Source of the DNA: Chloroflexota bacterium
Lineage (GTDB): Bacteria > Chloroflexota > Dormibacteria > Dormibacterales > Dormibacteraceae
Assembly: GCA_003446775.1 (NCBI GenBank)
Contig: DMCH01000158.1
Coordinates: 21,650-85,649 of the forward strand
Direction: 5' to 3'
DNA length: 64,000 nt
Position numbers and translations under genes: made by a program. Position 1 is the stretch's first letter. Every line of letters begins with the position of its first letter. Below the pieces are notes generated by a model. It was not told where the DNA came from, ran no database searches, and saw nothing but the letters and a program-made list of their open reading frames with translations. Positions 2,096 to 55,756 of this stretch are shown here, piece after piece.

Positions 2096-5000
2096 CTACG
2101 TCAACGTGTACGAGGTCCCGGGGAAGTAAGCGTCGTAGGCGGCCGCGCTGCTCGCGTCGCGGACCCAGACCGAGTAGCGGTAGGTGCCGGCGGGCAATCC
2201 TGTCGTGTTCCAGCTGAATGAGGCGTTGCCGGAGTAGGCCTGCACAATCGTCCAGCTGCCGCCAGGGGCAAGGAGCCAGAACTCGTAGCGCGGATTGGTG
2301 CACCCCGAAGCGCTGGCGGTGATGGTGATGGTGGTGCCATGCGCTTGCGGGGAAGTGGGCGCCGCGGAGGCGGTCACCGAGGTGCAAGGCGTGGTCGTGA
2401 GCGTGTACACCGTGCCGGGGACGAACGCGTCGTAGGCGGCCGAGCTGCTGACGTCGCGCACCCAGACCGAGTAGCTGTAAGTGCCCGCGTGCGGGTTCGT
2501 GTTCCAGTTGAATGTGGCGCTGCTCGAATAACCCTGGGCAATCGTCCAGCTGCCTCCGGGGGACAGGATCCAGAACTCGTAGCGCGCGTTGGGGCAGCCT
2601 GAGGCGCTGGCCGAGATGGTGACGAGGGTGCCCGCCGCCTGCGGGGAGGCCGGCGCAGCGGAGGCGGCTACTGAGGTGCATGTCGCAGAGGTCAGCGTGA
2701 ACGCGATACCCGGCAAGTAACTGTCGTAAGCGGCCGCGCTGCTGGCGTCGCGGACCCACACGGAGTAGCGGTAGATGCCGGCAGGCGGGGTCGTGTTCCA
2801 GTTGAACGTCGCACTGGCGGAATAGGCCTGCGCGATGGTCCAGCTGCCTCCAGGGGTCAGGAGCCAGAACTCATATCGCGGGTTGGGGCAGCCCGAGGCG
2901 CTGGCGGTGATGGCGACGGGCGTGCCAGCTGTTTGCGGGGAGGCCGGCGCCGCGGACGCGGTTACCGAAGTACAGGCCCCGGACGTCAGCGTGTACGGGA
3001 TGCCCGGGACGTATGTGTCGTAGCTGGCGCCCACGCTGCTGGCGTCGCGAACCCAGACTGATACGTAATAATTGCCGACCGCATCGCCGGTGGTGTTCCA
3101 GTTGAAAGTGGCGCTGCTGGAGTAAGCCTGCGCCACTGTCCAGCTGCCTCCTGGAGGAAGAATCCAGAACTGGTAGCGCGGGTTAGGGCAAAAAGAGGCG
3201 CTGGCGGAAGCGGTCACAACGATCTGTGTCCCGACGAACTGCGGCGAAGGCACGCTCGGGCTCAGAGTCGCGCCGGTGCATGCGTTGATCACAAAGGGAA
3301 CGACTGTGTACTGGTCGTAGGAGACCGGTCGTGTGGAGTCACGGACGTCGACCTCGAAGTTGTAGTTACCGCCTGGCGCGCCCGCCGTCGACCACGTATA
3401 TGTGCGCGACGTGCTGTAGTCCTGCAACAGCGTCCAACCTGCGCCTGGGGTCTGGTAGTAGAACCTGTAGAGCGGCGAGGGACAGATGGTCGTGGTTGCC
3501 GTGAAAGTGACCATGGTGCTCGGGCCCTGCGGCGAGGGCGGGTTGGCCGTGAGTGTGGGCGCCGTGCAGGCCGGGTTGGCAAGCGTGAACGTGACGCTGG
3601 CGCTCGCCTCAGCGGCGGTGGTCGCTCCCACATTCCTCACCTCGGCCCTGAGGCCGTAGCCACCTAGGGGCTGTCCGGTGGTGTTCCAGCTGTACGTGCT
3701 CGCGCTGCCATAGTCCTGGACGACGCCATAAGACTGGTTCGGTTTGGCAATCGAAAAGCGGTACTGCGGTGTGCCGGGACAGGTCGCGGCGGCAGTCAGC
3801 ACAACAGTGGCGCCGGGAGTCTGCGGCGGCGCGGGACTGGTCGCAAGTGTCACCGCGCTGCAGGCAGTCAGGACAAACGAGAGCTGGACGCTCTGCATCG
3901 TGTTCGGCGCAGCTGCTCCGCCCTTGGCGTCGAGCTCGAGGCCATAGGTCCCGCCAACACCGTTTCCGACCCACGTGAACGTGCTGCTGGCGCTGAAATC
4001 CTGCACCACCGCGTAAGCGCCACCAGGCGGCTGGATCATGAACCGGTACTGCGGTGCGCCCACACACGTCGCGCTGCCCGTGAGCAAGACCTGCGAGCCG
4101 GTCGGCTGAGGCGATGTCTTGTCCGTCGTAAACGCGGCGCCGGAGCACGACGTCAGCGAGAACGGCATCGACTGGGATGCTTCAGACGCAGAGCTGACTG
4201 ATTTCACACGCACGTCGACGGAGAAGATGTATGCGCCGTAAGGATTGCTCGTCGTGTTCCACGCATAGGTCGCGGTCGGGCTATAGGGCTCGACGACGCT
4301 GGTGGTCCCGCCCGGAGACGTCTCCGAGAACTGGTACTCGGGCGTACCCGAGCATGTGCCCACCGCTGTGAACACAACCTGCGTGCTCGGCAGCTGCGGC
4401 GACGCGTGGTCGGCGGTGAGCGACGGCGTCGAACAGCGCGCGAGGCGGAACGAAATCGTCGCCACCGTGTCGTAGGTCACCGAAGAGCCGGCGTTCCTGG
4501 CGGCAACCTGCACGGAGTACGTGCCGAGCGGTGTGTTTGATGCTGTGTTCCACGTCCACGTGCTGGTGGTCGAGTAAGCCCGTGCCACAGCCCATGCGCC
4601 GCCAGGAGGCTGGAGGTAGAACTGGTACTCCGGGGTGCCCGCGCAGAACGCGCTGCCTGTGAACGTGATGGCTGCGCCGGGGATCTGCGGCGTCGGCTTG
4701 TCGGCGCTGATGGCGCCGGCGGAGCACTGGCCGAACTTGCTGAGGATCATGTTCCAGAGCTCCGGCGCTCCACCGCCGTAGTTCAGGGCGAAGATGCCCG
4801 CACCGCGCAGGCCGTCGCGGATGACGAGGTCGTACTTGTTGCCCAGCGCCGTGGCGTCGTCCCAGTACATCTCGCGAGTGCAGCCTGCGGTCGAGCTCGT
4901 CCACGTGTCCCAGCGCGTGGCGCTGCCAGCGTCGCGCGTGACGCGGTGGATGTGGTAGTCGCTGTTGTAGACGTATCCGTTCTCAGTCGAAGCGTCCAGG

Positions 5001-6139
5001 TACCCGTCGGCTACTGCCTGCGTGCTTGCCACCGCATTTTCCGGGGCGTTGCTGGGCGTGTAGCCGGCGACGCATACCTTGCGGCCGTAGTAGGGCATGC
5101 CCATGATCACCTTGGACCCGGGCACCACCGCCCTGTACTCAGACGAGGCGCGGCCCTGGTTGAAGAGGTACGTCGAGAGCGGCGACGTGGGGCCGATGCA
5201 GAAGCTGGGGCAGCTCAGCGGCGGCGAGTCCCAGTTTGCGTACTCCATGTCGTACGCCATCACGAAGAATGAATCCGCGTAGCTCGCGAGAGCAGCGATG
5301 TCGAAGAAACCGAGAAACGGACAGGTGCTGCAGTCGCGAAAGCCGGCCGAACCTGAGTACGTGTCCACGGAGATGTATGAGGACGGGAGCGCCGCCCGCA
5401 TGTTCTTCACGAATGTCGTGAAGAGCGATTGAGAAGACTGCACCGCCCCGGTGCTTGGATCCGTGCAGTTTGTGTTGTTGCTCTCGTAGTCGATGTTTAC
5501 CCCGTCGATACCCTTATCGGCGACCTGCGCGACAGTGCGCTGGATCGTCAACGTGCTCCGTGGAGCCTGCAGGGCCGAGCACATGTTGGGCGTGCCGTAT
5601 GTCGAGTCGAACATGATGAGGGTCAGGACCACCTTCGTCCCGTTCGCGTGAGCGGTTTGGATCAATCCCGGCACAGGTCCATAGGGGTCATTCCAGATGG
5701 ACAGCGCGGAGTCATCGCTGAAGTCGCCGCTCCACGTGACATGCACTCCGAAGTACGCGACGGTCGACAGCAGTGACATGTTCCAAGACGGATAGCCGAC
5801 CGTGGGATCGCCAAGGCTGCTCGCAAACGCAAAGCCGAAAACCTCGCGAAACATCCGGGGGTTGCTCACGTCCTGAACGGATGTGGTTTTGGCGAGGGCA
5901 AGCGGCGCGTAGGTGTGAATAGGGGCGGTGGCTTCGAACTGCGCCGCGGCGGCCATCGTGGGCGATGCGCTGTCTCGGAACTTCCGCAAGGCCGCACTCT
6001 CAGGGGCGATCGCAGCCGCGGGCCGAGCCGCGTGAGGCGGGCTCGACGCCTGAACCGGGCCCACCGGGATCAGCGCAATCAGCGGCACCACACCGCAGAT
6101 CAATGCTCCGACGAAATGGCGCAACCGGTGCTTGGACAT
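2096..6139 (-). CDS. Secreted GH18-like glycosidase with nine C-terminal ~97-aa two-Cys repeats
   Basis: Track ORF 2096..6169. ATG 6139 is preferred: MSKHRLRHFVGALICGVVPLIALIP is signal-like and has the same MSKH start as the gene at 15605. GH18 catalytic-region motif GIDGVNIDYE at 5483-5506. Repeats run from Cys codon 4726 to the last codon at 2099. Confidence 0.85.
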   Translation of the reverse strand: MSKHRLRHFVGALICGVVPLIALIPVGPVQASSPPHAARPAAAIAPESAALRKFRDSASPTMAAAAQFEATAPIHTYAPLALAKTTSVQDVSNPRMFREVFGFAFASSLGDPTVGYPSWNMSLLSTVAYFGVHVTWSGDFSDDSALSIWNDPYGPVPGLIQTAHANGTKVVLTLIMFDSTYGTPNMCSALQAPRSTLTIQRTVAQVADKGIDGVNIDYESNNTNCTDPSTGAVQSSQSLFTTFVKNMRAALPSSYISVDTYSGSAGFRDCSTCPFLGFFDIAALASYADSFFVMAYDMEYANWDSPPLSCPSFCIGPTSPLSTYLFNQGRASSEYRAVVPGSKVIMGMPYYGRKVCVAGYTPSNAPENAVASTQAVADGYLDASTENGYVYNSDYHIHRVTRDAGSATRWDTWTSSTAGCTREMYWDDATALGNKYDLVIRDGLRGAGIFALNYGGGAPELWNMILSKFGQCSAGAISADKPTPQIPGAAITFTGSAFCAGTPEYQFYLQPPGGAWAVARAYSTTSTWTWNTASNTPLGTYSVQVAARNAGSSVTYDTVATISFRLARCSTPSLTADHASPQLPSTQVVFTAVGTCSGTPEYQFSETSPGGTTSVVEPYSPTATYAWNTTSNPYGAYIFSVDVRVKSVSSASEASQSMPFSLTSCSGAAFTTDKTSPQPTGSQVLLTGSATCVGAPQYRFMIQPPGGAYAVVQDFSASSTFTWVGNGVGGTYGLELDAKGGAAAPNTMQSVQLSFVLTACSAVTLATSPAPPQTPGATVVLTAAATCPGTPQYRFSIAKPNQSYGVVQDYGSASTYSWNTTGQPLGGYGLRAEVRNVGATTAAEASASVTFTLANPACTAPTLTANPPSPQGPSTMVTFTATTTICPSPLYRFYYQTPGAGWTLLQDYSTSRTYTWSTAGAPGGNYNFEVDVRDSTRPVSYDQYTVVPFVINACTGATLSPSVPSPQFVGTQIVVTASASASFCPNPRYQFWILPPGGSWTVAQAYSSSATFNWNTTGDAVGNYYVSVWVRDASSVGASYDTYVPGIPYTLTSGACTSVTASAAPASPQTAGTPVAITASASGCPNPRYEFWLLTPGGSWTIAQAYSASATFNWNTTPPAGIYRYSVWVRDASSAAAYDSYLPGIAFTLTSATCTSVAASAAPASPQAAGTLVTISASASGCPNARYEFWILSPGGSWTIAQGYSSSATFNWNTNPHAGTYSYSVWVRDVSSSAAYDAFVPGTVYTLTTTPCTSVTASAAPTSPQAHGTTITITASASGCTNPRYEFWLLAPGGSWTIVQAYSGNASFSWNTTGLPAGTYRYSVWVRDASSAAAYDAYFPGTSYTLT
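2099..4726 (-). repeat. Coding tandem array, 9 units of the two-Cys YEFW repeat
   Basis: Units read from the translation. The five N-proximal units are divergent (e.g. CSAGAISADKPTPQIPGAAITFTGSAFCAGTPEYQFYLQPPGGAW). The four C-proximal units are near consensus (CTSVTASAAPASPQ...SGCPNPRYEFWLL). Confidence 0.9.
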
Positions 6140-6155
6140 GGGCAAAACCAAACGC

Positions 6156-6185
6156 ACTCTAGGCTCCATCGCCCATCAAGGTCAA
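6156..6185 (-). promoter_or_regulatory. Putative sigma70-type promoter, TTGACC-18-TAGAGT
   Basis: Minus strand: TTGACC (6185-6180), 18-nt spacer, TAGAGT (6161-6156), 16 nt before ATG 6139. The CTAGAGTG motif recurs upstream of the genes at 58180 and 15605. Confidence 0.4.
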
Positions 6186-9191: not shown

Positions 9192-9201
9192 GCTAGCCAG
9201 A

Positions 9202-11859
9202 GTGAAGGGACTGCGACTCGCGGGCACCGCTGCCGTGAGCTTGCTTTTCAGCGGGATTGTGGTCGTGCAGGCAGCCCCTGCCACACATGCCGTCATCCCT
9301 TTCACGGCCCAACCCAAAGCGGCGGCTGTCGTCCCTAACGGCAGCTGGCCCGTGTACCACCATGACAACGCGCACACGGGCTACGACGGCACCCAACCAA
9401 CCTCGTCAACAGCGACCACCGGGTGGGTCAGCGGGACGATGGATGCTCCGGTCTACGGCTCACCGCTGGTCTACGGCGGAATCGTCTACTCGGCCACCCT
9501 CAACAACACCGTTTACGCGTTCAACCAGGCCGACGGGTCGACCCTGTGGAGCAGGAACCTCGGAGCGCCCACGACCACCGGCTGGAACTGCGGCAACGTC
9601 TCCTTTCAGGGAATCCTGGGCACGCCGGTCATCGACACGGCCGCAGGCCGGATCTACGTCGCCGCCCTGGGATCGGATCACGTCTACCGCGTGTTCGGCC
9701 TAGGCCTTGCCTCCGGAGCAACCCAACTCACTACCGCTATCCCAACCACCATCGGTGACGGGACCTTCGACTGGACGATTCAGCAGCAGCGCGGCGCCCT
9801 TGGACTCGCCAACGGCTTCGTCTACGTTCCCTTCGGAGGGCGGTGGGGCGACTGCGGCAGCTACCACGGTTGGGTGGTCGGGGTGCCCACGAATGGCGGC
9901 ACGACGCCCGCGGTCTATGAGACGCCCTCAACGGGATCAGGCATCTGGGCGGCTGGAGGGGTGGTCACCGACGACGCCACCGGCAACGTCTTCTTCGCCA
10001 CCGGGAATGCGATGCCCCGCTCCTCTTGCCCCACCGCGGTCAACAGCGACTCCGTGATCCGGACCGGCCCGGCACTCGGCACGGCGACATCCTTCTTCCA
10101 GCCGCAGGACTGGCTGGCCAACTGGTGCGACACCGACACGGACCTGGGCTCGGCCAGCCCCACGCTCATCAGCCCCAGCCTCGCCTTCATGTCCGGCAAG
10201 TACGGCCAGGGCTTCCTGCTCGACCCTACAAACCTTGGTGGCACGAATGGGCAGATCTTCCCTGCCCGCTCACCTTATGCCGGCGCCGACGTATGCGTGG
10301 GCAACCACAACGACGCAACCTTCGGGTCCTTCGCCTATGCCGCTCCCTACATCTACCTTTCCTGCCAGAGCCAGGGCATCGTGGGCCTCAAGGTCGACAC
10401 CACGGCAAAAACCTTCAGCCTCTGCGACGCCACCTGCGCAGCTCCTTCATGGAATTCGGGCGCCGGCAAGGTTTACGGCCCGCCGATCGTCGCGGGCGGC
10501 ATCGTGTGGGCGGTCGATACCAACGGCTCCGGGCTCACCGGGTTCGATGCGGCCACGGGCACCTCCGTCTTCCAGAGCGGCACTTTCCCGGCCCACAATT
10601 TTTCGACCCCGAGCGAGGCGGGCGGGCAGGTCTTCGTCGGGTCGGACACAGTCATACGTTCGTTCAACCTGGTGGTCAACGTTTGCCCGTCCGTGACTGC
10701 GTCCGCGGCGCCGGCCTCACCGCAGACGTCGGGCACGCCGGTAACCGTCACCGCCGTCGCCTCTGGCTGCCCCAACCCGCGATACGAGTTCTGGATCCTG
10801 CCCCCGGCAGGTAGCTGGACTATCGCGCAGCCGTACTCCAGCACCGCCACTTACAACTGGAACACCACCGGACTGGCCGCGGGCACTTACAGCTACTCCG
10901 TCTGGGTCCGCGACGCCAGCAGCGCGGCAAGCTACGACTCTTTCTTCCCTGGCACGGCGTACACGCTCACGACGACGGCCTGCAACTCTGTGACCGCCTC
11001 GGCGGCGCCGGCCTCCCCGCAAACCGTCGGCACGCCCGTCACCATCACCGCCAGCGCCTCGGGCTGCACCGCGCGCTACGAGTTCTGGATCCTGCCCCCC
11101 GGAGGCAGCTGGGCGATCGCGCAGCCCTACTCCGGCACCGCGACATTCAACTGGACCACCACCGGACTCCCGGCCGGCACCTATAACTACTCGGTCTGGG
11201 CACGTGACAACGCCAGCGCGGCCGCGTATGACACGTACTTCCCAGGTACCGCGTATGTCCTTACGTCCGCGGCCTGTTCGTCGGTGACCGCCTCGGCCGC
11301 GCCGGCCTCCCCGCAATCGGCAGGCACCCCCGTCACCATCACCGCCACCGCCTCGGGCTGCCCCAACGCGCGCTACGAGTTCTGGATCCTTCCTCCGGGA
11401 GGCAGTTGGACGATCATGCAGGCCTATTCCGCCAGCGCGACGTTCAACTGGAATACCACCCCGACCGCCGGCGTCTACCGATACTCGGTCTGGGTCCGCG
11501 ATAACAGCAGCGCTGCCGCCTACGACACGTACTTCCCCGGCACCACGTACACGCTGACGACCACGCCCTGCACGTCGGTGACGGCCTCCGCGGCGCCGGC
11601 CTCTCCGCAGGCGCATGGCACGACGGTCACGATCACAGCCAGCGCCTCGGGCTGCACCAATCCGCGCTACGAATTCTGGATCCTGGCTCCAGGAGGCAGC
11701 TGGGCAATTGCTCAGGCCTACTCCAGCACCGCGACGTTCAGCTGGAACACGACTGGGCTGGCCGCGGGCGTCTATCGCTACTCGGTGTGGGCCCGTGACG
11801 CCAGCAGCGGCGCCGGCTACGACACTTACTTCCCCGGTACCGCGTACACGCTGACCTGA
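9202..11859 (+). CDS. Secreted PQQ-like beta-propeller protein with four C-terminal two-Cys repeats
   Basis: Track ORF 9160..11859. GTG 9202 avoids overlap with the upstream gene, but ATG 9160 is possible. Signal-like GLRLAGTAAVSLLFSGIVVVQAAPA. Propeller repeats include VYGSPLVYGGIVYSATLNNTVYAFNQADGSTLWSRNLG. Repeats start at 10684. Confidence 0.8.
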   Translation: MKGLRLAGTAAVSLLFSGIVVVQAAPATHAVIPFTAQPKAAAVVPNGSWPVYHHDNAHTGYDGTQPTSSTATTGWVSGTMDAPVYGSPLVYGGIVYSATLNNTVYAFNQADGSTLWSRNLGAPTTTGWNCGNVSFQGILGTPVIDTAAGRIYVAALGSDHVYRVFGLGLASGATQLTTAIPTTIGDGTFDWTIQQQRGALGLANGFVYVPFGGRWGDCGSYHGWVVGVPTNGGTTPAVYETPSTGSGIWAAGGVVTDDATGNVFFATGNAMPRSSCPTAVNSDSVIRTGPALGTATSFFQPQDWLANWCDTDTDLGSASPTLISPSLAFMSGKYGQGFLLDPTNLGGTNGQIFPARSPYAGADVCVGNHNDATFGSFAYAAPYIYLSCQSQGIVGLKVDTTAKTFSLCDATCAAPSWNSGAGKVYGPPIVAGGIVWAVDTNGSGLTGFDAATGTSVFQSGTFPAHNFSTPSEAGGQVFVGSDTVIRSFNLVVNVCPSVTASAAPASPQTSGTPVTVTAVASGCPNPRYEFWILPPAGSWTIAQPYSSTATYNWNTTGLAAGTYSYSVWVRDASSAASYDSFFPGTAYTLTTTACNSVTASAAPASPQTVGTPVTITASASGCTARYEFWILPPGGSWAIAQPYSGTATFNWTTTGLPAGTYNYSVWARDNASAAAYDTYFPGTAYVLTSAACSSVTASAAPASPQSAGTPVTITATASGCPNARYEFWILPPGGSWTIMQAYSASATFNWNTTPTAGVYRYSVWVRDNSSAAAYDTYFPGTTYTLTTTPCTSVTASAAPASPQAHGTTVTITASASGCTNPRYEFWILAPGGSWAIAQAYSSTATFSWNTTGLAAGVYRYSVWARDASSGAGYDTYFPGTAYTLT
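10684..11856 (+). repeat. Coding tandem array, 4 units
   Basis: TTCTGGATCC (codons F-W-I-L) recurs at 10789, 11083, 11380 and 11674, giving a period of 294-297 nt. Confidence 0.9.
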
Positions 11860-11864
11860 GCTTG

Positions 11865-12033: not shown

Positions 12034-15000
12034 GTGCCTGAACCAGGTTCCTCCAGCGTGCGCGTCGCAGTGTTGGCAGCCATCTCAGCGCTGGCGCTGC
12101 TGACGCCGCTGCCGGCTCCAGCCGCGCCCCAGGTCGCTCCCCTGGCCGCCCACGCCGCGCTGCCCTCGGACCGGCTGCATTTCGGACTCGCCAACGGCCC
12201 GGGCACCGAGTTCAACTGGATGGTCGCGACTGGGATCCCCTGGCACTATCGCTACCAGTACCTTGCCGGCGGCATCAACACGGGCGGCGTCGCGGGCGAC
12301 CCTTGCGGCGCCAACGCGGGCTGGCAGACCTGGAATTCGCCCGCCGGTCAGTTCGTGACCGACTACATCACCGCCAGCGTCGCGCAGAAGGCCATCCCGG
12401 TGTTCACCTACTACGAGATCGTGCAGTCGAACCCGTCGCCGGGCAGCGAAAGCGCCGAGCTCACGAAGATCTCGACTGTCTGCACGATGCAGGCCTACTG
12501 GGCCGACTTCACGGCCCTGATGCAGAAGGTGGGCGCGTCGGGAGCGCAGGTCGTGGTGCACGTCGAGCCCGACTTCTGGGGATTCATGGAACACCAGAAT
12601 CCGGATCCCACACTTCTTCCAGCGGTCGTTGCGAGCTCAGGCAACGCCGACTTGGCCGGGTTGCCGAACACAGTGGCGGGGATGGGTCTCGCGTTCTTGA
12701 GGCTGCGCGACAAATACGCCCCGAACGCCCTGCTCGCCATCCACGCGAGCAGCTGGGCTAGCGGCGTCGACATCGCGACCGACCAGCGCACCACAATCGA
12801 CCCGGCCGCCGAAGCCGACGCGGTGATCGCGTTCCTCAACAAGGCGGGACTGGTCGGCAATCCCGCCGGCATTACGCCATGGGACGTGATCTTCAACGAC
12901 GTGGCCGACCACGACGCGGCTTGGTACGGGGCGCTGTCCAACGTCCATTGGTGGGATCGCAACAACGCAGTCTTCCCGAACTTCACGCGCTGGCTCGCGT
13001 TCATGAGCCGTATGCACACCGACACGGCATTGCCGCTGATCGAATGGCAGGTGCCTGTGGGCAACCAGTACTTCGACACCATGAACAACACCGACGGCCA
13101 CTACCAGGACAACCGCGCCGAGTACTTCCTCGCGCACCCGGGCCAGCTCACCGCGGCCGGCATCGTCGCGGTGCTCTTCGGCAAAGCCAACGCGGGCCAG
13201 ACCAACTACTGGGACGAGAAAGGCGACGGCATCACCAACCCGGCGCCGGTGAATTCGTGGCAGTGCAACCTCTGCAACAACCACACGTCGACGGTCGCTG
13301 ACGACGACGGTGGGTTCTTGCATATGGCGGTCGGCGCTTACTACCGAACATTCCCCGGCACGAGCTGCAACCTGTTTCCGAGCGACAGCGTCTTCAACAC
13401 CGACATCTCCTCGCTCCCGGTGAACACGCAGAGCCAAACGTGGATGGGCAACATGGCGCAGAACGCAAACCTGCACGCGGACATGGGCACGTTTGCGCAG
13501 TGGTATGGAATGCCGGTTAACGTTGCCCCGCCTCCCACCACGGGCGTGACGCCCACCTTCCTCTATAACTCGGACAGCGACCACCCGGCCGAGGGCTACC
13601 CAATCGATCAGAGCACGTTGATAGAAGGCGGGCCGAGCGCGCCCTCGACCAGCGACCGGCACGCGCTCGTCATCAACAAGAACCTCTGCAAGCTCTACGA
13701 GATCTTCAACCTGCAGAACTTCACCAACGGCCAGACGCCGTCCGCCGGTTCAGGCGCGACATGGGACCTGAGCTCGAATGCGATGCGGCCGAATGGCTTC
13801 ACTTCCGCGGACGCCGCCGGCCTGCCCATTACGCCACTGCTGCTCCGGCCCGACGAGATCCAGGCCGGCACCATCGCGCACGCGATCCGTTTCACCGCGC
13901 ACTGCACGAGCACTTATATCTGGCCCGCCTCGCACCAGGCCGGCTCGTGCAGCTCGGCCTTCCCGCCGATGGGCGCGCGGTTCCGGCTGCGGTCGAACTA
14001 CAACATCTCGAGCTTCTCGCCCACCACGCAGGCTGTGTTGCGCGCGTTCCAGCACTACGGCCTGGTCCTCGCCGACAACGGATCGGACTGGTTTTTCTCC
14101 GGGACCACCGATGACTGGTGGGGTACCGCGGCGGGCAGCCAGGTGATCAGCGAGCTGAAGACGATCCCGGCGGCGCAGTTCGACGCCATCGACGAATCAG
14201 GTCTTCAAGCGGCGGCCGGCTCGTACCAGGCGGGCCCCTACACGGCACCACGCTGCGCGACGGCGGCGATGAGCGCGGCTCCTTCATCGCCACAGTCCGC
14301 GGGCGCCACGGTGGTGGTAACCGCCTCGACCTCAGGCTGCCCCAACCCCCTGTACGAGTTCTGGCTCCTCGCCCCCGGGTCGAGCACCTGGACTGTGGCG
14401 CAGGCGTACTCCACTGCCGGCACCTTCAACTGGAACACCAGCGGCTCGGCCGCAGGCACCTATTACATCTCTGTGTGGATTCGCGACGCTGGCAGCGCCA
14501 ACAGTTACGACGCCTACTTCCCGGGTGCCCCGTACACGCTGACCTCGACCGGCTGCGCGTCAGTGACCGCCTCCGCGGCGCCCGCCTCCCCGCAAACAGC
14601 CGGCACGCCCGTCACCATCACGGCCACTGCCTCAGGCTGCAAGGCGCGCTACGAGTTCTGGATCCTGCCCCCTGGAGGCAGCTGGACGATCGTTCAGGCC
14701 TACTCCAGCACGGCTACTTTCGGCTGGACTACCACCGGACTCGCGGCCGGCACCTATCGCTATTCGGTCTGGGTCCGCGACGCCGCCAGCGCAGCGAGCT
14801 ATGACGCCTACTTCCCCGGCACCGCCTACGCGCTCACCTCTACGTCCACACCTTGCACAGCAGTGACCGCCTCCGCGGCGCCGGCCTCCCCGCAATCAGC
14901 GGGCGCCGTCGTCACCATCACCGCCAGCGCCTCGGGCTGCGCCAACGCGCGTTACGAGTTCTGGATCCTGGCCCCCGGGGGTAGCTGGACCATGGCTCAG

Positions 15001-15438
15001 GCCTACTCCAGCAGCGCCACTTTCGCCTGGAATACGACCCCGCCCGCCGGCACCTACCGCTACTCGGTCTGGGTCCGCGACGCCGGCAGTTCGGCTAGCT
15101 ATGACGCTTTCTCCCCCGGCACCACCTACACGCTGACGACCACGCCCTGCACTTCGGTGACCGCCTCCGCGGCGCCGGCCTCCCCGCAGGCCCATGGCAC
15201 CACGATCTCCATCACCGCCATCGCCTCTGGCTGCCCCAACCCTCAGTACGAGTTCTGGATCCTGGCCCCTGGGGGCACGTGGACGATTGCTCAGGGCTAC
15301 TCCAGCAGCGCCACATTCAGCTGGAACACGACCGGACTGCCCGCCGGCACCTACCGCTACTCGGTCTGGGTCCGCGACGCCAGCAGCTCGGCCGCGTACG
15401 ACGCTTTCTTCCCCAGTGTCACGTACACGCTGACCTAG
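12034..15438 (+). CDS. Secreted protein with two N-terminal domains of unknown function and four C-terminal two-Cys repeats
   Basis: GTG 12034. Signal-like VRVAVLAAISALALLTPLPAPAA. Domain 1 (to ~13330) has VVVHVEPDFWGFMEH and may be a glycosidase-like barrel (tentative). Domain 2 (~13330-14250) has FTSADAAGLPITPLLLRPDEI...HAIRFTA...LVLADNGSDWFFSG, a conserved hypothetical domain. Repeats start at 14254. Confidence 0.75.
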   Translation: MPEPGSSSVRVAVLAAISALALLTPLPAPAAPQVAPLAAHAALPSDRLHFGLANGPGTEFNWMVATGIPWHYRYQYLAGGINTGGVAGDPCGANAGWQTWNSPAGQFVTDYITASVAQKAIPVFTYYEIVQSNPSPGSESAELTKISTVCTMQAYWADFTALMQKVGASGAQVVVHVEPDFWGFMEHQNPDPTLLPAVVASSGNADLAGLPNTVAGMGLAFLRLRDKYAPNALLAIHASSWASGVDIATDQRTTIDPAAEADAVIAFLNKAGLVGNPAGITPWDVIFNDVADHDAAWYGALSNVHWWDRNNAVFPNFTRWLAFMSRMHTDTALPLIEWQVPVGNQYFDTMNNTDGHYQDNRAEYFLAHPGQLTAAGIVAVLFGKANAGQTNYWDEKGDGITNPAPVNSWQCNLCNNHTSTVADDDGGFLHMAVGAYYRTFPGTSCNLFPSDSVFNTDISSLPVNTQSQTWMGNMAQNANLHADMGTFAQWYGMPVNVAPPPTTGVTPTFLYNSDSDHPAEGYPIDQSTLIEGGPSAPSTSDRHALVINKNLCKLYEIFNLQNFTNGQTPSAGSGATWDLSSNAMRPNGFTSADAAGLPITPLLLRPDEIQAGTIAHAIRFTAHCTSTYIWPASHQAGSCSSAFPPMGARFRLRSNYNISSFSPTTQAVLRAFQHYGLVLADNGSDWFFSGTTDDWWGTAAGSQVISELKTIPAAQFDAIDESGLQAAAGSYQAGPYTAPRCATAAMSAAPSSPQSAGATVVVTASTSGCPNPLYEFWLLAPGSSTWTVAQAYSTAGTFNWNTSGSAAGTYYISVWIRDAGSANSYDAYFPGAPYTLTSTGCASVTASAAPASPQTAGTPVTITATASGCKARYEFWILPPGGSWTIVQAYSSTATFGWTTTGLAAGTYRYSVWVRDAASAASYDAYFPGTAYALTSTSTPCTAVTASAAPASPQSAGAVVTITASASGCANARYEFWILAPGGSWTMAQAYSSSATFAWNTTPPAGTYRYSVWVRDAGSSASYDAFSPGTTYTLTTTPCTSVTASAAPASPQAHGTTISITAIASGCPNPQYEFWILAPGGTWTIAQGYSSSATFSWNTTGLPAGTYRYSVWVRDASSSAAYDAFFPSVTYTLT
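14254..15435 (+). repeat. Coding tandem array, 4 units
   Basis: Units start RCATAAMSAAPSSPQ, CASVTASAAPASPQTAG, CTAVTASAAPASPQSAG and CTSVTASAAPASPQAHG. Confidence 0.9.
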
Positions 15439-15503: not shown

Positions 15504-15604
15504 GCCGGTGCGCGCGGAGCCCGCGGAGCTAGACGAACCAGGTCCTCCGGACGTTCGGAAGGCAAGATCGCCGGGCCCCTGGCCGTTGGGCTAGGGTGTC
15601 GCCC

Positions 15605-18265
15605 ATGTCCAAGCATGTCTTCGGTGCGCTCGCCAGGACCACGTTGAGGTCGCCGGCCGGACGCCGGCTCGCGGTCTCGCTGCTCAGCACCGTCGCGATC
15701 GGGTTCCTGGCGAGCCTGCCGGCCGCGGCTCCCTCTCCGGTCCAGCCCGGCACTACCCCTGCAGCCAGCGCCAGTTGGCTAACCCGCCTGAACCAGTGGC
15801 GGACCAGCACGGGTCTGGCCACCCTGACGGAGAACACGCTGTGGAGCCAGGGCGACGCCGCCCACGCTTTCTACATGGTCAAGACCGGCCTGGTCACGCA
15901 CTACGAGGACCCTGCCAACCCCTACTACACGGTCGCCGGCGACACCGCGGCCCAGAACTCCAACATCCAGGTCAGCTCCAGCACCGGCACCACCGACGAT
16001 CAGGCCATCGACTGGTGGATGGCGGCGCCATTCCACGCGATGAACATGATGGACCCGCGCCTGACACAGACTGGTTTCGGCTCGTACCGCGATGGCACTG
16101 CCTCGCCCTGGCAGGAGGGCGGTGCTCTGGACACCATCCGGGGCAATTCGTTCAGCGGCGGTTCGTACCCCGTCTATTTCCCCGGCAACGGCACCACCGA
16201 GCCGCTGACTAGGTATGGGGGCGGTGAATTCCCGGATCCTCTGCAAGCGTGTCCTGGATACAGCGCGCCAACCGGTTTGCCTGTCTTCATCCAGATCGGC
16301 GGCAACGTAAACACGACCGCCGGCGCCACTCACTCCTTTACAGGAAATGGAACCGCGCTCAGCCACTGCGTCATCGACTCGAGCAACTCCGCCGTCAGCA
16401 GCTACCTGTACACGAGGGGCGGCGTGATCCTTGTCCCCCAGCAGCCACTGCAGAGCGGCGTCAAGTACGTCGTCGCGCTCACGGTCAACGGAGTTGCCTA
16501 CACGTGGTCGTTCACGGTGGGGCCGTTTTTCGCCTCGGTCAGCGCTGTTACTCCGAATGCAGGCGCTTTGGCCGGAGGAACCACAGTCACGATCACTGGT
16601 GCGGGTTTCAACAATTCCATGGCCAGCGTCAAATTCGGAACCACATCGGCGACCAGTTTCAGCGTCGTGAACGACACGACCGTCACGGCGGTGAGCCCGG
16701 CCCACACCGCCGGCACGGTGGACGTCACGGTGACGACGGCCAGCGGCACCAGTGCCACCTCGGCGCTTGACCATTTCACGTTCGGAGCGTGCACTGCGGT
16801 GACTGTCTCCGCGGCGCCGCCCTCGCCGTCCACACCGGGCACGGCGGTCAAATTCACTGGCAGTGCTTTTGGCTGCTCCAACCCGCTCTATGAGTTCTGG
16901 ATCCTGGCTCCCGGGGGCAGCTGGACGATCATGCAGGCCTACTCGACCAGCGCCACGTTCAACTGGAACACGACCGGACTCGCGGGAGGCAGCTACCTCT
17001 ACTCGGTCTGGGTTCGCGACGCCGCCAGCTCAGCCGGCTATGACGCTTTCTTCCCCGGCACCGCGTACGCGCTGACGTCGTCGACCTGTGCGTCGGTGAG
17101 CGCCTCCGCGGCGCCGCCCTCCCCATCCATTTCCGGCACTGCTGTCACGATCACCGGCGCCGCCTTGGGCTGTGCCAACGCGCGCTACGAGTTCTGGATC
17201 CTGCCCCCTGGAGGCAGCTGGTCGATTGGGCAGGCCTACTCAAGCAGCGCCACCTTCAGCTGGAACACCACCGGCCTGGTCGCCGGCACCTACAGCTACT
17301 CGGTCTGGATCCGCGACGCCAGCAGCACGGCGAGCTATGACGCGTACTTCCCCGGTACCGGATACACGCTGACGTCCACGAACTGCACGTCGGTGAGCGC
17401 TTCCGCGGCGCCGCCCTCCCCGTCCATGTTGGGCACGGCTGTCACATTCACCGGCGCTGCCTCGGGCTGTCCCAACCCGCGCTACGAGTTCTGGATCCTG
17501 CCCCCTGGAGGCAGTTGGACGATTGCTCAGGCCTACTCCAGCAGCGCCACATTCAGCTGGAATACGACCGGACTCACAGCCGGCGCCTACAGCTACTCGG
17601 TCTGGGTCCGCGACGCCGCCAGCTCGGCCGGCTATGACGCTTTCTTCCCAGGTACCGCGTACACGCTGACATCGCCCTGTGCGTCCGTGACCGCCTCCAC
17701 AATGCCGGTGTCCCCGCAATCGGCGGGCACGGCTATCACCGTCACCGCCAGCGCCTCGGGCTGCACCAACCCGCGCTACGAGTTCTGGATCCTGGCCCCC
17801 GCGGGCAGTTGGAAGATTGCTCAGGCCTACTCCAGCAGCGCCACGTTCACCTGGAACACGACTCCGCCCTCCGGCACCTACAGCTACTCGGTCTGGGTCC
17901 GCGACGCCAGCAGCGCGGCAGCCTACGACGCTTTCTTACCCGGCACCACGTACACGCTCACGACCACGCCCTGCACGTCGGTGACCGCCACCGCGGCACC
18001 GGCCTCCCCGCAGGCCCATGGCACCACGATCTCTATCACGGCCAGCGCCTCGGGCTGCTCCAATCCGCGCTACGAGTTCTGGATCCTCGCCCCCGGCTCG
18101 AGCACCTGGACGATCGTGCAGTCCTACTCCAGCAGCGCCACATTCAGCTGGAACACGAGCGGACTGCCCGCCGGCACCTACCGCTACTCGGTCTGGGTGC
18201 ACGACGCCAGCAGCGCGGCCGGCTACGACGCTTACTTCCCCGGCACCACGTACACCCTGACGTGA
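15605..18265 (+). CDS. Secreted CAP/SCP-like + IPT/TIG protein with five C-terminal two-Cys repeats
   Basis: Track ORF starts at GTG 15596. ATG 15605 gives MSKHVFGAL, matching the MSKH start of the gene at 6139. CAP-like: WLTRLNQWRTSTGLATLTENTLWSQGDAAHAFYM. IPT/TIG-like: VSAVTPNAGALAGGTTVTITGAGF...VKFGTTSATSFSVVNDTTVTAVSPAHTAGTVDVTVTT. Repeats start at 16790. Confidence 0.8.
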   Translation: MSKHVFGALARTTLRSPAGRRLAVSLLSTVAIGFLASLPAAAPSPVQPGTTPAASASWLTRLNQWRTSTGLATLTENTLWSQGDAAHAFYMVKTGLVTHYEDPANPYYTVAGDTAAQNSNIQVSSSTGTTDDQAIDWWMAAPFHAMNMMDPRLTQTGFGSYRDGTASPWQEGGALDTIRGNSFSGGSYPVYFPGNGTTEPLTRYGGGEFPDPLQACPGYSAPTGLPVFIQIGGNVNTTAGATHSFTGNGTALSHCVIDSSNSAVSSYLYTRGGVILVPQQPLQSGVKYVVALTVNGVAYTWSFTVGPFFASVSAVTPNAGALAGGTTVTITGAGFNNSMASVKFGTTSATSFSVVNDTTVTAVSPAHTAGTVDVTVTTASGTSATSALDHFTFGACTAVTVSAAPPSPSTPGTAVKFTGSAFGCSNPLYEFWILAPGGSWTIMQAYSTSATFNWNTTGLAGGSYLYSVWVRDAASSAGYDAFFPGTAYALTSSTCASVSASAAPPSPSISGTAVTITGAALGCANARYEFWILPPGGSWSIGQAYSSSATFSWNTTGLVAGTYSYSVWIRDASSTASYDAYFPGTGYTLTSTNCTSVSASAAPPSPSMLGTAVTFTGAASGCPNPRYEFWILPPGGSWTIAQAYSSSATFSWNTTGLTAGAYSYSVWVRDAASSAGYDAFFPGTAYTLTSPCASVTASTMPVSPQSAGTAITVTASASGCTNPRYEFWILAPAGSWKIAQAYSSSATFTWNTTPPSGTYSYSVWVRDASSAAAYDAFLPGTTYTLTTTPCTSVTATAAPASPQAHGTTISITASASGCSNPRYEFWILAPGSSTWTIVQSYSSSATFSWNTSGLPAGTYRYSVWVHDASSAAGYDAYFPGTTYTLT
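16790..18262 (+). repeat. Coding tandem array, 5 units
   Basis: Units start CTAVTVSAAPPSPS, CASVSASAAPPSPS, CTSVSASAAPPSPS, CASVTASTMPVSPQ and CTSVTATAAPASPQAHG. Confidence 0.9.
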
Positions 18266-18345: not shown

Positions 18346-21300
18346 GTGGGGTCATTGACAGGGGTCGCGCGCGCCACGTTATACGCGGGTGCGATTGCGC
18401 TCGTAATCGCTTCGGGTTTGGTCGGATCCAAAGACCACGTTCTCGCGCAAGCCACCGGCAAAGACGTCCCCGCATCCGGGACGGCGCAAGTGATACCGGT
18501 GCCTGCAAAACACGCTACCGCCCGGAAGCAGAGTCCAGCCGCGCCGGCGAATCAGCCGCTGCGGACCCTTGATCCGGTGAAGCTGCAGAAGGCAAAGACA
18601 GCCGCCAACGATCGCGCGGCCGCGGCTCAGCTGGGACTAAGCCCAGTCGCCTCACCTGCAGGCCAACCGTATGGCGTGTACAGCGGCGTCAACCGCCCAG
18701 GCCTCTCCGCGAGCGGATGTTGTAGTCCGTCCGACTCCACCGGCGCCGTCGGGCCCACCAACTACGTGCAGATGGTCAACAGCGCCATCGAGCAGCTACC
18801 CGTCCACGTACTTGCAGGGAACGCCAGCGCGTTGGACCTCGGCACGTTTGGCGCTTTCAACGCCACGGATTGCACGTACGACCCTCAGATCGCCTGGGAC
18901 GAACAGGGAGGGCGCTGGCTGTATTCGTTTCTCGACCAGGTTTCGTCGACGGGGAGCGGCTGCGCTTCCATCAGCAGCAACTACTTGGCCTTTGGCTGGT
19001 CGAAGACGAGCGATGCGAGCGATCTGGTCAACGGCTGGTGCGGTTTCCTGCTCATCACCGGCAGCGACCTTTTCGATTACCCCAAGCTCGGTCACGACAA
19101 CAACTTCATCAGCGTCGGCGCCAACGTTTACGCCAACTCAGGCGGAGGCGCGTTCACGACATCGGTCATCGTGGCGATCCCGAAACCGGCCCGCGCGGAT
19201 ACATCGTGCACCGTGCCCCCTCCCCCGACGTACTTTGGTTCCCCGGCCACGCCACTGCGGAACGCGGACAACACGGTCGCGTTCACCCCGGTGCCCGCGG
19301 ACACCGCCGACAGTTCGCCCTTGGGCTACGTCGTCGCATCTCATTTCCCGGGTACCGGGACGGCCACCAGACTCATGGTTTGGCACCTCAGCTCGAATGC
19401 CGGCACACCTGTCCTCACCGCAGACGGTGACGTGACCGTCGCCGGCTACGCTGTGCCTCCCGCGATTCCGCAGCCGGCCACCGGCACTACTTCGTGCTCG
19501 ACTGCCGGCAACTGCCTCGACTCCAATGATGGGCGGCTGACACAAGCGGTTGCTCATTTCGATCCCGATGCCGGTAAGGAAACCATCTGGACCCAGCACG
19601 CGATCGCCGACGCCGCCGTCGGAACGCTTTCCGTCGAACGCTGGTACGAACTGATTCCCGGGCAGAACACCCTGCGGCAATCGGGGAACGTGAGCGACAC
19701 CACCCTCCACATCTTCAATGGCGCCATCTCCCCCAGCTCGGCCGGCAACGAAGCGGTGATGTATTACAACGCCGGCAACGGCTCCGCCGGTGGCTTCGCA
19801 AGCTTCCGCGCCAAGAGCCGCAATTCTTCGACTCCTCTTGGGACCGTGACGAATGAAACCATCCTCGCCAGCGACGCGATCAACGACAACGACCTAAGCT
19901 GCGGCGTGAACCGCCGGCCGGTGGACCTCACGCTGCCGTGTCGTTGGGGCGACTACGCCGCGGCCAGGCCGGATCCGCTCGACGCGAACGCGGTCTGGGG
20001 CACCAGCATGCTGACCGGCACTGGCGGGACTAGCACGACCGCCGGGTGGAGAACGGCGATCGCCGCCTACACAAACGGCTGCCCGTGGACTGTCCTCAGC
20101 CCCCACTCCTCGAGCGCAATCACCGGGTCGACCAATCAGTTCACGGCCACATCGATGGGCTGCAGCAACCCGGAATACGAGTTCTTCGTAGGTCCCTCAA
20201 CAGGGAACGGACCCTGGACCCTGAAGCAGGCGTTCAGCGCCAGCAACACCTGGACCTGGGACACGTCCGGCTATTCGGCCGGTGACTACGACGTCCAGGT
20301 CTGGGCCAATCAGACCGGCGACTCGACCGCGAACTGGGAGGCGATGAATATCGCCAACATCACGCTGACGCAGTCGCCGCCCTGCACGGCCGTGACCGCC
20401 TCCGCGACGCCGGCCTCGCCGTCGTTGCCGGGGACGGCCGTCACCGTCACCGCCAGCGCCTCGGGCTGCCCCAACCCCCGCTACCAGTTCTGGATCCTGG
20501 CTCCTGGCTCGAGCACCTGGACGATTGCGCAGGCCTACTCCGCCAGCGCCACATTCAACTGGAACACGACGGCACAAGCAGCCGGCACCTACCAATTCTC
20601 GGTCTGGGCCCGCGACGCGGGCAGCGCGGCCGCCTATGACACTTACGTCCCCGGGTTCCCATACACGCTGAGGTCCGCGGCCTGCACATCGGTGACCGCC
20701 TCGGCGGCGCCGGCTTCCCCGCAGTTGCCGGGTACCGCCGTCACCATCACCGCCAGCGCCTCGGGTTGTCCCAACGCGCGCTACCAGTTCTGGATCCTGG
20801 CCCCTGGGTCGAGCACCTGGACGATTGCGCAGGCCTACTCAGCCAGCGCCACATTCAACTGGACCACGACCGGATTAGCAGCCGGTACCTACCAGTTCTC
20901 GGTCTGGGCCCGCGACGCCAGCAGCGCAGCCAGCTATGACACGTACGTCCCCGGGTTTCCATACACGCTGACGACCACGGCCTGCACCTCGGTGACCGCC
21001 TCGGCGGCGCCAGCTTCCCCGCAGGTGGCGGGTACCGCCGTCACCATCACCGCCAGCGCCTTGGGCTGTCCCAACGCGCGCTACCAGTTCTGGATCCTGG
21101 CCCCAGGGGGCAGCTGGACGATTGCGCAGGCCTACTCAGCCAGCGCCACATTCAACTGGACCACGACCGGACTCGCAGCCGGCACTTACAGCTACTCGGT
21201 CTGGGTCCGCGACGCCAGCAGCGCGGCGAGCTATGACGCGTTCTTGCCTGGCACCGCGTACAAGCTGACATCCACGGCCTGCACGTCGGTGACCGCCTCC

Positions 21301-21870
21301 GCGGCGCCGGCTTCCCCACAAGCGGTGGGCACCGCCGTCACCATCAGCGCCAGCGCCTCGGGCTGCCCCAACGCGCGCTACCAGTTCTGGATCCTGGCCC
21401 CCGGGGGCAGTTGGAAGATTGCGCAGGCCTATTCCAGCAGCGCGACATTCAACTGGACCACGACCGGACTCGCCGCCGGCACCTACACCTACTCGGTCTG
21501 GGTCCGCGACGCCAGCAGCGCGGCGGCCTACGACGCTTTCTCACCCGGCACCGCGTACACGCTCACGACCACGCCCTGCGCGTCGCTGACCGCCTCCGCG
21601 GCGCCGGCCTCCCCACAGGTGCATGGCACCACAGTCACCATCACCGCCAGCGCCTCGGGCTGCCCCAACCCCCAATACGAGTTCTGGATCCTCGCTCCTG
21701 GCTCGAGCACCTGGACGATGGTGCAGGGCTACTCCAGCAATGGCACATTCATCTGGAACACGACCGGACTTGCTGCCGGTACATACAAGTTCTCGGTCTG
21801 GGTCCGCGACGCCAGCAGCGGGGCCGGCTACGACGCTTACTTCCCCGGCGCCACCTACACGCTGACCTGA
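18346..21870 (+). CDS. Secreted protein with a large unknown (possibly sialidase-like propeller) N-terminal domain and six C-terminal two-Cys repeats
   Basis: GTG 18346. TM/signal-like ATLYAGAIALVIASGLVG. The N-domain contains FDYPKLGHDNNFISVGANVY and CRWGDYAAARPDPLDANAVWG. The first repeat (from 20080) is divergent (GCPWTVLSPHSS...CSNPEYEFFVG). The next four use RYQFWILAP. Confidence 0.75.
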   Translation: MGSLTGVARATLYAGAIALVIASGLVGSKDHVLAQATGKDVPASGTAQVIPVPAKHATARKQSPAAPANQPLRTLDPVKLQKAKTAANDRAAAAQLGLSPVASPAGQPYGVYSGVNRPGLSASGCCSPSDSTGAVGPTNYVQMVNSAIEQLPVHVLAGNASALDLGTFGAFNATDCTYDPQIAWDEQGGRWLYSFLDQVSSTGSGCASISSNYLAFGWSKTSDASDLVNGWCGFLLITGSDLFDYPKLGHDNNFISVGANVYANSGGGAFTTSVIVAIPKPARADTSCTVPPPPTYFGSPATPLRNADNTVAFTPVPADTADSSPLGYVVASHFPGTGTATRLMVWHLSSNAGTPVLTADGDVTVAGYAVPPAIPQPATGTTSCSTAGNCLDSNDGRLTQAVAHFDPDAGKETIWTQHAIADAAVGTLSVERWYELIPGQNTLRQSGNVSDTTLHIFNGAISPSSAGNEAVMYYNAGNGSAGGFASFRAKSRNSSTPLGTVTNETILASDAINDNDLSCGVNRRPVDLTLPCRWGDYAAARPDPLDANAVWGTSMLTGTGGTSTTAGWRTAIAAYTNGCPWTVLSPHSSSAITGSTNQFTATSMGCSNPEYEFFVGPSTGNGPWTLKQAFSASNTWTWDTSGYSAGDYDVQVWANQTGDSTANWEAMNIANITLTQSPPCTAVTASATPASPSLPGTAVTVTASASGCPNPRYQFWILAPGSSTWTIAQAYSASATFNWNTTAQAAGTYQFSVWARDAGSAAAYDTYVPGFPYTLRSAACTSVTASAAPASPQLPGTAVTITASASGCPNARYQFWILAPGSSTWTIAQAYSASATFNWTTTGLAAGTYQFSVWARDASSAASYDTYVPGFPYTLTTTACTSVTASAAPASPQVAGTAVTITASALGCPNARYQFWILAPGGSWTIAQAYSASATFNWTTTGLAAGTYSYSVWVRDASSAASYDAFLPGTAYKLTSTACTSVTASAAPASPQAVGTAVTISASASGCPNARYQFWILAPGGSWKIAQAYSSSATFNWTTTGLAAGTYTYSVWVRDASSAAAYDAFSPGTAYTLTTTPCASLTASAAPASPQVHGTTVTITASASGCPNPQYEFWILAPGSSTWTMVQGYSSNGTFIWNTTGLAAGTYKFSVWVRDASSGAGYDAYFPGATYTLT
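20080..21867 (+). repeat. Coding tandem array, 6 units
   Basis: Read from the translation; the last unit is of the PQVHGTTVTITASASGCPNPQYEFWILAP type. Confidence 0.9.
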
Positions 21871-55646: not shown

Positions 55647-55654
55647 TTCCGGAC

Positions 55655-55708: not shown

Positions 55709-55756
55709 ACGCGCTCACGCTGCAGAGTCTATTGGTCTAGATAATCGCGACAGTTG

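Follow-up and report, generated by a model that had tools for sequence, protein, structure and literature searches.

The arrays and the genes that carry them

The stretch of DNA analysed here, called the window, comprises 64,000 nucleotides (nt) of contig DMCH01000158.1 from a Chloroflexota bacterium of the Dormibacteraceae; as a genome to be compared with others it is denoted W. Eight of its genes, labelled G1 to G8, encode proteins in which an N-terminal head is followed by a C-terminal array of units of about 98 amino acids (aa), and the evolution of these units is the subject of this report. A regular expression run on the eight open reading frames (ORFs) split the arrays into 9+4+4+5+6+4+4+4 = 40 units, u1 being the unit next to the head. 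This confirmed to the base the unit count and the nine-unit array at 2099-4726 given in a first-pass annotation made from the letters alone. Tandem Repeats Finder detected the arrays with a period of 294-297, and all eight ORFs are intact and in frame. We consider it likely that each array is made of two strata, namely units inherited vertically with their head and a distal pool that has been homogenised within the genome by non-reciprocal exchange. The genes and arrays are as follows.

2096..6169, minus strand: G1, secreted GH18 protein of 1357 aa with a nine-unit C-terminal array (ORF; Pfam Glyco_hydro_18 5.5e-17, Y_Y_Y 3.4e-25)
4727..6169, minus strand: G1 head, signal peptide and GH18 catalytic domain (Pfam)
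2099-4726, minus strand: G1 nine-unit array, exact to the base (regular-expression split)
3281..4726, minus strand: G1 u1-u5, ancient head-linked stratum (same-index one-to-one orthologues elsewhere)
2975..3280, minus strand: G1 u6, transition unit, canonical type in sequence and by its matches vertically inherited
2099..2974, minus strand: G1 u7-u9 (antepenultimate, penultimate and last), candidate exchangeable distal module (best nt matches in other W genes)
9160-11859, plus strand: G2, PQQ-like beta-propeller head; array of 4 units at 10684..11856 (Pfam, split)
12034-15438, plus strand: G3, 740-aa head without Pfam family; array of 4 units at 14254..15435, u1 diverged (Pfam, split)
15596-18265, plus strand: G4, CAP and TIG head; array of 5 units at 16790..18262 (Pfam, split)
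18346-21870, plus strand: G5, head without Pfam family; u1 at 20080..20382, u2-u6 at 20383..21867 (split)
21941-26068, plus strand: G6, BNR/Ycf48-like repeat head; array of 4 units at 24863..26065 (Pfam, split)
26115-28289, plus strand: G7, Amidase_2 and fn3 head; array of 4 units at 27090..28286 (Pfam, split)
55757-58180, minus strand: G8, second GH18 head; array of 4 units at 55760..56938 (Pfam, split)

The heads are unrelated across the eight genes and fall into seven kinds (two GH18, a PQQ-like propeller, CAP with TIG, Amidase_2 with fn3, a BNR/Ycf48-like head and two heads without a family). The secreted heads of G3 (12034-14253, 740 aa) and G5 (18346-20079, 578 aa) matched no Pfam family even at E = 1. 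Relatives of the G5 head, at 41-61% identity, were found in 15 soil metagenome contigs, and in the loci inspected unit arrays follow there as well. G8 lies 27 kb beyond G7, the last gene of the main cluster. The array genes are embedded in an envelope-polysaccharide biosynthesis locus, the window also containing two Wzy_C genes, a Wzx-type flippase, GT1/GT4 glycosyltransferases, and CapD-like and DegT genes. The 16 kb from G1 to the start of G4 were assembled in six Joint Genome Institute (JGI) soil samples at 99.99-100% identity (identical or one mismatch), and two further JGI samples hold shorter overlaps with the locus that are identical too. Across these eight independent assemblies no strain-level variation was seen at the locus, array length included.

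Each unit has a Cys at its start and a second Cys about 28 residues later. The Pfam family Y_Y_Y (PF07495) scored 42-88 bits against the whole proteins G1 to G7, above the gathering score of 26.6, and 25.9 bits, just under it, against G8; the best stretches span profile positions 3-57 of 65. An AlphaFold2 model of G1u9, based on the 40-unit alignment, predicts a seven-strand immunoglobulin (Ig)-like beta-sandwich (predicted local distance difference test score 97.2), and a Foldseek search of the model against PDB returned solely generic Ig and fn3 matches (E > 0.002), with no closer structural relative. The A-B, C-C' and E-F loops would be located at the pole that bears the C-terminus, and the two Cys together with a 9-aa insert found in some units at the opposite pole, a placement read from the strand order and topology of the model, not measured. 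This C-terminal pole would be the free tip in the last unit and the joint to the last unit in the penultimate one. All eight proteins terminate right after the last unit (...YTLT or YVLV, then stop), and beyond it none of them has a C-terminal anchor (e.g. LPXTG), another motif or a hydrophobic tail. Homology past the stop codon was ruled out, as the eight genes share no alignable sequence on their 3' side.

Unit relationships in the window and in other genomes

Three syntenic loci were used for comparison: genome A (L004) with G1, ilvD, Wzy, G2 and G4; genome B (L005) with G1, ilvD, Wzy, G2, G7 and a further GH18 gene; and genome E (L006), where G1 is the only array gene. The gene order G1-ilvD-Wzy-G2, with G1 and G2 on opposite strands, is common to W, A and B, and E agrees with it up to the end of its contig. 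Nearer relatives of W were not found above 61-67% aa identity (genome contigs with the G4 head and metagenome contigs with the G5 head).

The nine-unit array of G1 shows an abrupt break between u6 and u7. The five head-proximal units, described as strongly diverged in the first-pass annotation, are indeed so, with best aa identities of 34-47% to units of other genes and means of 29-39%. Relatives of G1 with a GH18 head and an array number 120, mostly from Dormibacterota, and have 7-11 units when near full length. The lengths of u1-u5 (97, 96, 95, 98 and 96 aa) are kept in the orthologues split into units, and each of the five best matches the same-index unit in the 11 closest of 14 orthologues examined. 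The G1 head is 83% identical (aa) to its genome A orthologue and 54% to the paralogous G8 head, and the first nt matches of G1 u1-u6 are A_G1 u1-u6, at 76-84%. Unit 6 is 62% identical on average, and 70% at best, to units of other W genes at the aa level and groups in the tree with the first units of G3, G6 and G7. Its best nt match is A_G1_u6 at 78% (bootstrap of the W and A pair 100), and its leading foreign aa matches are u6 of P0002 (75%) and of P0003 (69%). The best partners of G1 u7-u9 all come from other genes of W (aa identity 81-85%, nt identity 82-87%; mean aa identity about 70-73%), no positional orthologue was found in A, B or E, and the best index is scrambled among orthologues. 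The earlier statement that four C-proximal units are near-identical to units elsewhere has to be narrowed: u7-u9 share a common type, but at 81-85% aa at best, and u6 is intermediate. A gradual decay along the array, or the divergence gradient first proposed, is ruled out by the break, which is found at the same place in genome A; there are instead two strata, with one-to-one orthologues elsewhere for G1 u1-u6 and G5 u1. The orthologue of G5 in L015 has a head 61% identical to that of G5, and its u1 and G5 u1 are reciprocal best matches at 55% aa identity, vs at most 40% between G5 u1 and any other W unit. Judged by these matches, G1 u1-u6 and G5 u1 are ancient, were inherited with their heads and lie outside the exchanged module. 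The first units of G3, G6 and G7 are probably likewise head-linked and vertically inherited.

The remaining 31 units of W, all but G1 u1-u6 and the first units of G3, G5 and G7, are called canonical. For every canonical unit of W the three best nt matches are all in W, and for every canonical unit of B all three are in B. Most best nt matches of the canonical units of A are in A, the exceptions being A_G4 u1 and u5, which match W units at a low 74-79%. The positional orthologue is the best nt match for no canonical unit of W, A or B, and E units are absent from the three best matches of every canonical W unit. By these matches the canonical units cluster by genome (W, A, B, E), as in concerted evolution; at silent sites, G7 and G8 lack the excess likeness to other W stalks that goes with it. 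Genome-wide traits follow the same division. The string CPHPLYQFW..YLYTVWARD is common to all B units in three genes. The 9-aa insert, which lies in the F-G loop and in most cases brings two extra Cys (e.g. PGTSCSSLGCYD), characterises all distal units of A and B and recurs in many G1 orthologues. It is missing from 29/31 canonical units of W, where G7u1 (27090-27407) is the one unit with an intact copy and G6u1 (24863-25180; AGAYSSSSGTYD) has a decayed one. The insert makes a useful marker for which unit type swept which genome.

Genome A offers the sharpest case. Here A_G1 u7-9 and A_G2 u2-4, behind unrelated heads, share a tract of about 950 nt that is 92-100% identical, with position-clade bootstraps of 100. 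Its edges coincide with the start of a unit and with the stop codon: identity falls to about 0.4 immediately beyond the stop and to about 0.6 ahead of the first unit. In A_G4, u2-4 are 86-97% identical to the tract units and are followed by a further terminal unit. The tract indicates that at least one exchange event in genome A is recent. In B, the last unit of the Amidase_2 gene orthologous to G7 (L005 1473-4094, minus strand) runs out of frame after ...YQFWILP (RGLEHLADQAG...), either through a frameshift that made a pseudo-unit or through an assembly error in the repeat.

Other arrays of W also carry stalks unlike those of their orthologues. Units u2-u6 of G5 are a canonical module of the W type and the most homogeneous units in the window: u2-u5 are 88% identical (nt) to their neighbours, G5u2 is 88% identical to G6u2, and the proportion of silent differences (pS) within the gene is 0.30. 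The L015 units, on the other hand, resemble the units of the neighbouring L015 gene (58-71%), not those of W (51% at most). G2 has a W-type stalk, whereas its orthologues in A and B bear A-type and B-type stalks. The orthologues of G4 in L001, L002 and L004 have unlike stalks, and G4 units 1-3 form a within-gene group (bootstrap 85 for G4u2/u3). The units of G8 are 74% identical (nt), equally to each other and to all other units, which places G8 outside the homogenised pool as far as the unit sequences tell. Some related heads carry other tails or none. The GH18 gene of L002 (4410-6908) has a different C-terminal repeat region and no Y_Y_Y units, the PQQ-like ORF of L002 (9382-10824, 480 aa) has no stalk, and TIG is missing from the CAP genes of L004 (1511-4051) and L002 and present in those of W (15596-18265) and L001; module shuffling therefore extends beyond the unit arrays.

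Within the window the canonical units are about 69-89% identical (nt). Identity averages 78.8% between units at the same position of different genes, 78.8% within the same gene and 76.5% at different positions between genes. The position effect (+2.2 points) and the gene effect (+1.7) are thus equally small, both with p = 2e-4 by permutation. The neighbour-joining tree places the last units of G1-G7 together (7/8 genes, bootstrap 10%) and also groups the penultimate units; G8 clusters by gene, and G5u2-u4 (with G6u2) and G4u2/u3 form within-gene or neighbour-gene groups. Hence the proposal that homology follows position rather than gene holds in this window as a weak position effect, matched in size by the gene effect. 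Mean synonymous divergence (dS) is about 0.65 among canonical units vs 1.1-1.5 where diverged units are involved, and its ratio to nonsynonymous divergence (dN/dS) among canonical units is about 0.28.

The terminal units have types of their own. As first annotated, six proteins have QAHGTT in their last unit, G5 has QVHGTT and G8 QSRGAT; the full 22-residue string reported for six proteins is, however, exact only in G2 and G3, with one difference in G1 and G4, two in G6 and four in G7. The one-residue-shorter NTTPPAG / NTTPTAG / NTNPHAG / NTTPPSG type is the penultimate unit of G1, G2, G3, G4 and G7, the five proteins expected, and is also seen in G1u7. Last and penultimate units differ mostly at five codons, Ala/His and Thr in the A-B loop and Gly-Leu vs Pro with a deletion in the E-F loop. 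Without these diagnostic codons identity is 0.820 between last units, 0.806 between last and penultimate units of different genes and 0.816 within a gene; the fractions of identical synonymous codons are 0.73, 0.71 and 0.73. Between last and penultimate units of W the position signal rests mostly on about five codons. At synonymous codons a last unit is equally near its own penultimate unit and foreign last units. In the G1 family 47/120 last units have [HR]G in the A-B loop vs 8/672 other units, and the motif is found in unit types as unlike as ...SVWVRD and ...EVDVRN. The ten best foreign matches of W last units include 4-8 last units (70-80% aa), and the G1 last unit has better matches inside W (82-85%). 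The last-unit type is therefore ancient across the phylum, and its simplest reading is retention by selection, not a by-product of grafting. Since both types recur at the same positions in other genomes, selection would maintain the terminal residues at the free tip and the penultimate ones at the joint between the last two units.

At silent sites, pS is 0.30-0.43 between most paralogous stalks of W, with means of 0.35-0.43 between those of G1-G6 and 0.30-0.46 within a gene. G3-G6 form a tight pool (0.30-0.37, alike within and between genes), with G1 and G2 looser (0.38-0.43), and the farther apart two genes lie, the higher is their pS (Spearman rho 0.71, permutation p = 0.007). Orthologous stalks of different genomes give 0.43-0.56, and ilvD 0.46-0.50 for W vs A or E and 0.55 for W vs B. 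The ilvD genes of A (L004 8287-9954) and B (L005 8313-10001), on contigs of the same sample, show an unusually low pS of 0.27 with a high nonsynonymous divergence (dN) of 0.15; this odd divergence may come from a recombined or partly misaligned gene.

Some further features of the window deserve mention. In three of the eight genes, G1, G2 and G8, a G+C-rich palindrome comes after the stop codon (CTCCCCACTTGTGGGGAG, GGGCTCCCCACCATGTGGGGAGCTCCCC and GGGCTCCCCGCCGCGGGGAGCTCCCC). The three palindromes belong to a single family and may be terminator hairpins or a small repetitive extragenic palindromic (REP)-like repeat:

2040-2095: palindrome downstream of G1 (minus strand)
11860-11960: palindrome downstream of G2
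~55640-55756: palindrome downstream of G8

Long antisense ORFs over the arrays and their neighbours (10717-11955 and 8160-9377, both minus strand; e.g. one of 412 aa, Arg/Gly-rich and repetitive) were rejected as genes, being by-products of 65% G+C and the repeats. Short contigs of soil metatranscriptome run X6 are 96-100% identical to parts of G1 (4163-4502, 4958-5108 and 5339-5489, in the head and units 1-2), which hints at in situ transcription of G1 or of a very near relative; carry-over of DNA is the possible alternative.

Explanations for the homogeneous distal units

The pattern is best explained if distal units have been copied repeatedly between the arrays of one genome by non-reciprocal homologous recombination, either gene conversion or cassette replacement. 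Copying would usually occur in register, in tracts of up to about three units that end with the homology at the stop codon. Neighbouring genes would exchange more often, G3-G6 being the tightest, G1 and G2 looser, and G7 and the remote G8 having hardly taken part lately. A few position-specific residues, the His/Arg-Gly of the last unit and the shortened Pro-rich E-F loop of the penultimate one, would persist on this homogenised background. Conversion is simpler than crossing-over because the latter would invert the G1-G2 interval, whose order is kept, and we infer gene conversion as the mechanism in W. The first-pass annotation had already proposed a cassette grafted onto different heads and then homogenised. 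Genome clustering, the tract in genome A and pS, all of which draw on other genomes, speak for this proposal, whereas the tests within the window do not, nor was grafting upheld as the origin of the last-unit type. Cassette exchange and concerted evolution are thus supported at the sequence level by the comparison between genomes, not by the window itself.

A number of observations weigh against this interpretation. A GENECONV-type permutation test on collinear alignments of the last four units, run once on all polymorphic sites and once on silent sites alone, gave nothing globally significant; the best fragment (22 polymorphic sites, 38-39 nt, in G1-G3 and G3-G4) had a pairwise p = 0.004 and a global p = 0.065. 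The pairwise homoplasy index (PHI) gave p = 0.45-0.60 for the 31 canonical units and was marginal at best on collinear stalks (p = 0.09 and 0.025). The three nt runs reported as shared by the last units of G3 and G4 do occur, once each, at 15182/18006, 15297/18124 and 15333/18160; at 87% identity, runs of such a length (28-39 nt) are roughly to be expected. Bootstraps of the position clades are 10-58%, and a star-like burst of duplications would give the same pattern within W. G7 (pS 0.45-0.53) and G8 (0.46-0.54) are near saturation and show no sign of recent exchange. A comparison of heads and stalks was feasible for one pair alone, the GH18 proteins G1 and G8, where the stalk dS of 0.89 is about equal to the head dS of 0.98-1.19 and stalk dN is much lower. 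For G8 this equality, together with the grouping of its units by gene, is the outcome that the first-pass annotation had named as refuting its proposal; both values are near saturation and the pair does not discriminate for the main cluster. At silent sites, divergence is lower between most paralogous stalks of W than between orthologous ones, but the comparison is soft: between genomes silent sites are near saturation, and heads and stalks have different codon bias. The Fisher p of about 1e-34 for [HR]G in last units is overstated, related proteins having been treated as independent. Finally, A, B and E are metagenome contigs with one 19-25 kb locus each, and assemblers can err at near-identical cassettes. 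The lack of clear tracts and the 72-89% identity mean that the homogenising events in W are old. Taken by itself, the window does not tell conversion that is still under way from an older burst in which stalks were duplicated.

Such a burst is the strongest alternative, although we regard it as improbable. Birth-and-death without conversion would have fused copies of one ancestral stalk of 3-4 units to new heads in a recent expansion in W, so that the position types reflect the ancestral order. G3, G5 and G6 lie between G2 and G7 in W and are absent from the syntenic loci of A and B, the W tree is star-like with low bootstraps, the lowest pS is found among G3-G6, and the absence of significant tracts and of a PHI signal fits as well. 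However, G1, G2, G4, G5 and G7 have stalked orthologues elsewhere and yet bear W-type distal units in W; their older stalks were therefore overwritten, which amounts to cassette replacement or conversion anyway, and such overwriting is directly visible in genome A. The spread of pS (standard deviation 0.076 vs a binomial 0.057, with the lowest pairs at 0.19-0.22) also argues for several events.

It is very unlikely that vertical descent with strong purifying selection suffices, that is, that old duplications of whole stalks have kept a constrained fold and surface with no exchange. The canonical dN/dS and the similar dS of stalks and heads in the G1/G8 pair, with far lower stalk dN, are in line with it. 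G7 and G8 fit this picture and it may still hold for them: the silent sites of G7 are near saturation, yet its QAHGTT last and NTTPPAG penultimate types are retained, and in both genes silent saturation with protein and terminal motifs kept points to purifying selection on fold and tip. For G1-G6 it is contradicted, as it leaves unexplained why units cluster by genome, why the 9-aa loop is present or absent throughout a genome and how three units in genome A come to be 92-100% identical (nt), and the fraction of identical codons is 0.73 observed vs about 0.46 expected at saturation. That short-read metagenome assembly collapsed or chimerised the repeats and so created false similarity between genes can be practically dismissed: all data are metagenomic, and Logan unitigs fragment to 285-428 nt within 2167-3168, the k-mers being common to several genes, but the independent JGI reassemblies agree, the W units differ by 12-28%, hence nothing was collapsed, and the eight ORFs are intact with synteny conserved in A, B and E. 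Apparent "joints" between unitigs in public runs, read as deletions or duplications, were rejected as cross-mapping of paralogous units.

Relation to known systems and significance

Concerted evolution is recognised by high homogeneity within a genome and high diversity between genomes (PMC3036644). The arrays described here agree with it in that distal units are nearest within their genome, a sharp conversion-like tract exists in A and edge units escape homogenisation. They differ in that only part of each array is homogenised, across otherwise unrelated genes, and a few position-specific residues are spared. Periscope proteins are bacterial surface proteins of variable length with arrays of highly similar tandem domains (PMC8201768, PMC9704523). 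They share with the G1-G8 proteins an N-terminal head, a long Ig-like array, recombination between repeats as the presumed motor and a unit number that varies between orthologues (7-11 in near-full-length G1 relatives). Unlike them, the proteins studied here lack an LPXTG-type anchor, have unit DNA identities in W well under periscope near-identity, show no length variation in eight samples, the unit number differing only between species-level orthologues, and are encoded by many genes instead of one.

Wall-binding repeat families under unrelated heads include the pneumococcal choline-binding proteins, CWB2 and the SLH proteins, and the CWB2 (Cwp) genes of Clostridioides difficile are clustered beside the locus for their polymer ligand. 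In architecture alone the arrays of W are similar, with one repeat module under unrelated heads that include peptidoglycan-type hydrolases (Amidase_2, YaaH-like GH18) and with paralogues clustered within an envelope-polysaccharide locus. The unit, in contrast, is an Ig-like Y_Y_Y domain of about 98 aa whose binding to a wall polymer is putative. Y_Y_Y has been reported in Bacteroidota sensor regulators and in PorZ (bioRxiv 10.64898/2026.01.10.698779, PMC5121618). The likeness lies in the family match above the gathering score in 7/8 proteins and the predicted Ig-like beta-sandwich; here, however, 4-9 tandem units with a conserved Cys pair stand at the C-terminus of secreted enzymes. A literature search found no description of tandem Y_Y_Y arrays or of such Dormibacterota surface proteins.

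Given the kinds of head, the lack of an anchor and the polysaccharide genes nearby, we infer that the array is a putative stalk or envelope-binding module for secreted wall- or glycan-active enzymes. A more speculative and rather doubtful idea is that the Y_Y_Y-like arrays are a surface-holding system specific to Dormibacterota, in which the last unit is a putative polysaccharide-binding "foot" and the distal cassette swept through the paralogues. If so, the foot, with its His/Arg-Gly tip, would bind a secondary polysaccharide of the envelope, the product of the adjacent Wzy/Wzx locus, and the three-unit cassette would be swept as polymer and foot co-evolve; this would explain why each genome has its own unit types and yet the terminal motif lasts.

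Overall we see here concerted evolution of a clear but ordinary kind, with no new principle involved. The arrays provide a clean natural example, from an uncultured and slow-growing phylum of soil bacteria, of homologous recombination that acts on one portion of a multidomain gene family. They also carry a caution for annotators and assemblers, as in Dormibacterota surface enzymes the orthology of genes between genomes does not extend to their stalks. The last three units with their His/Arg tip form a testable module for how these bacteria display peptidoglycan- and glycan-active enzymes.

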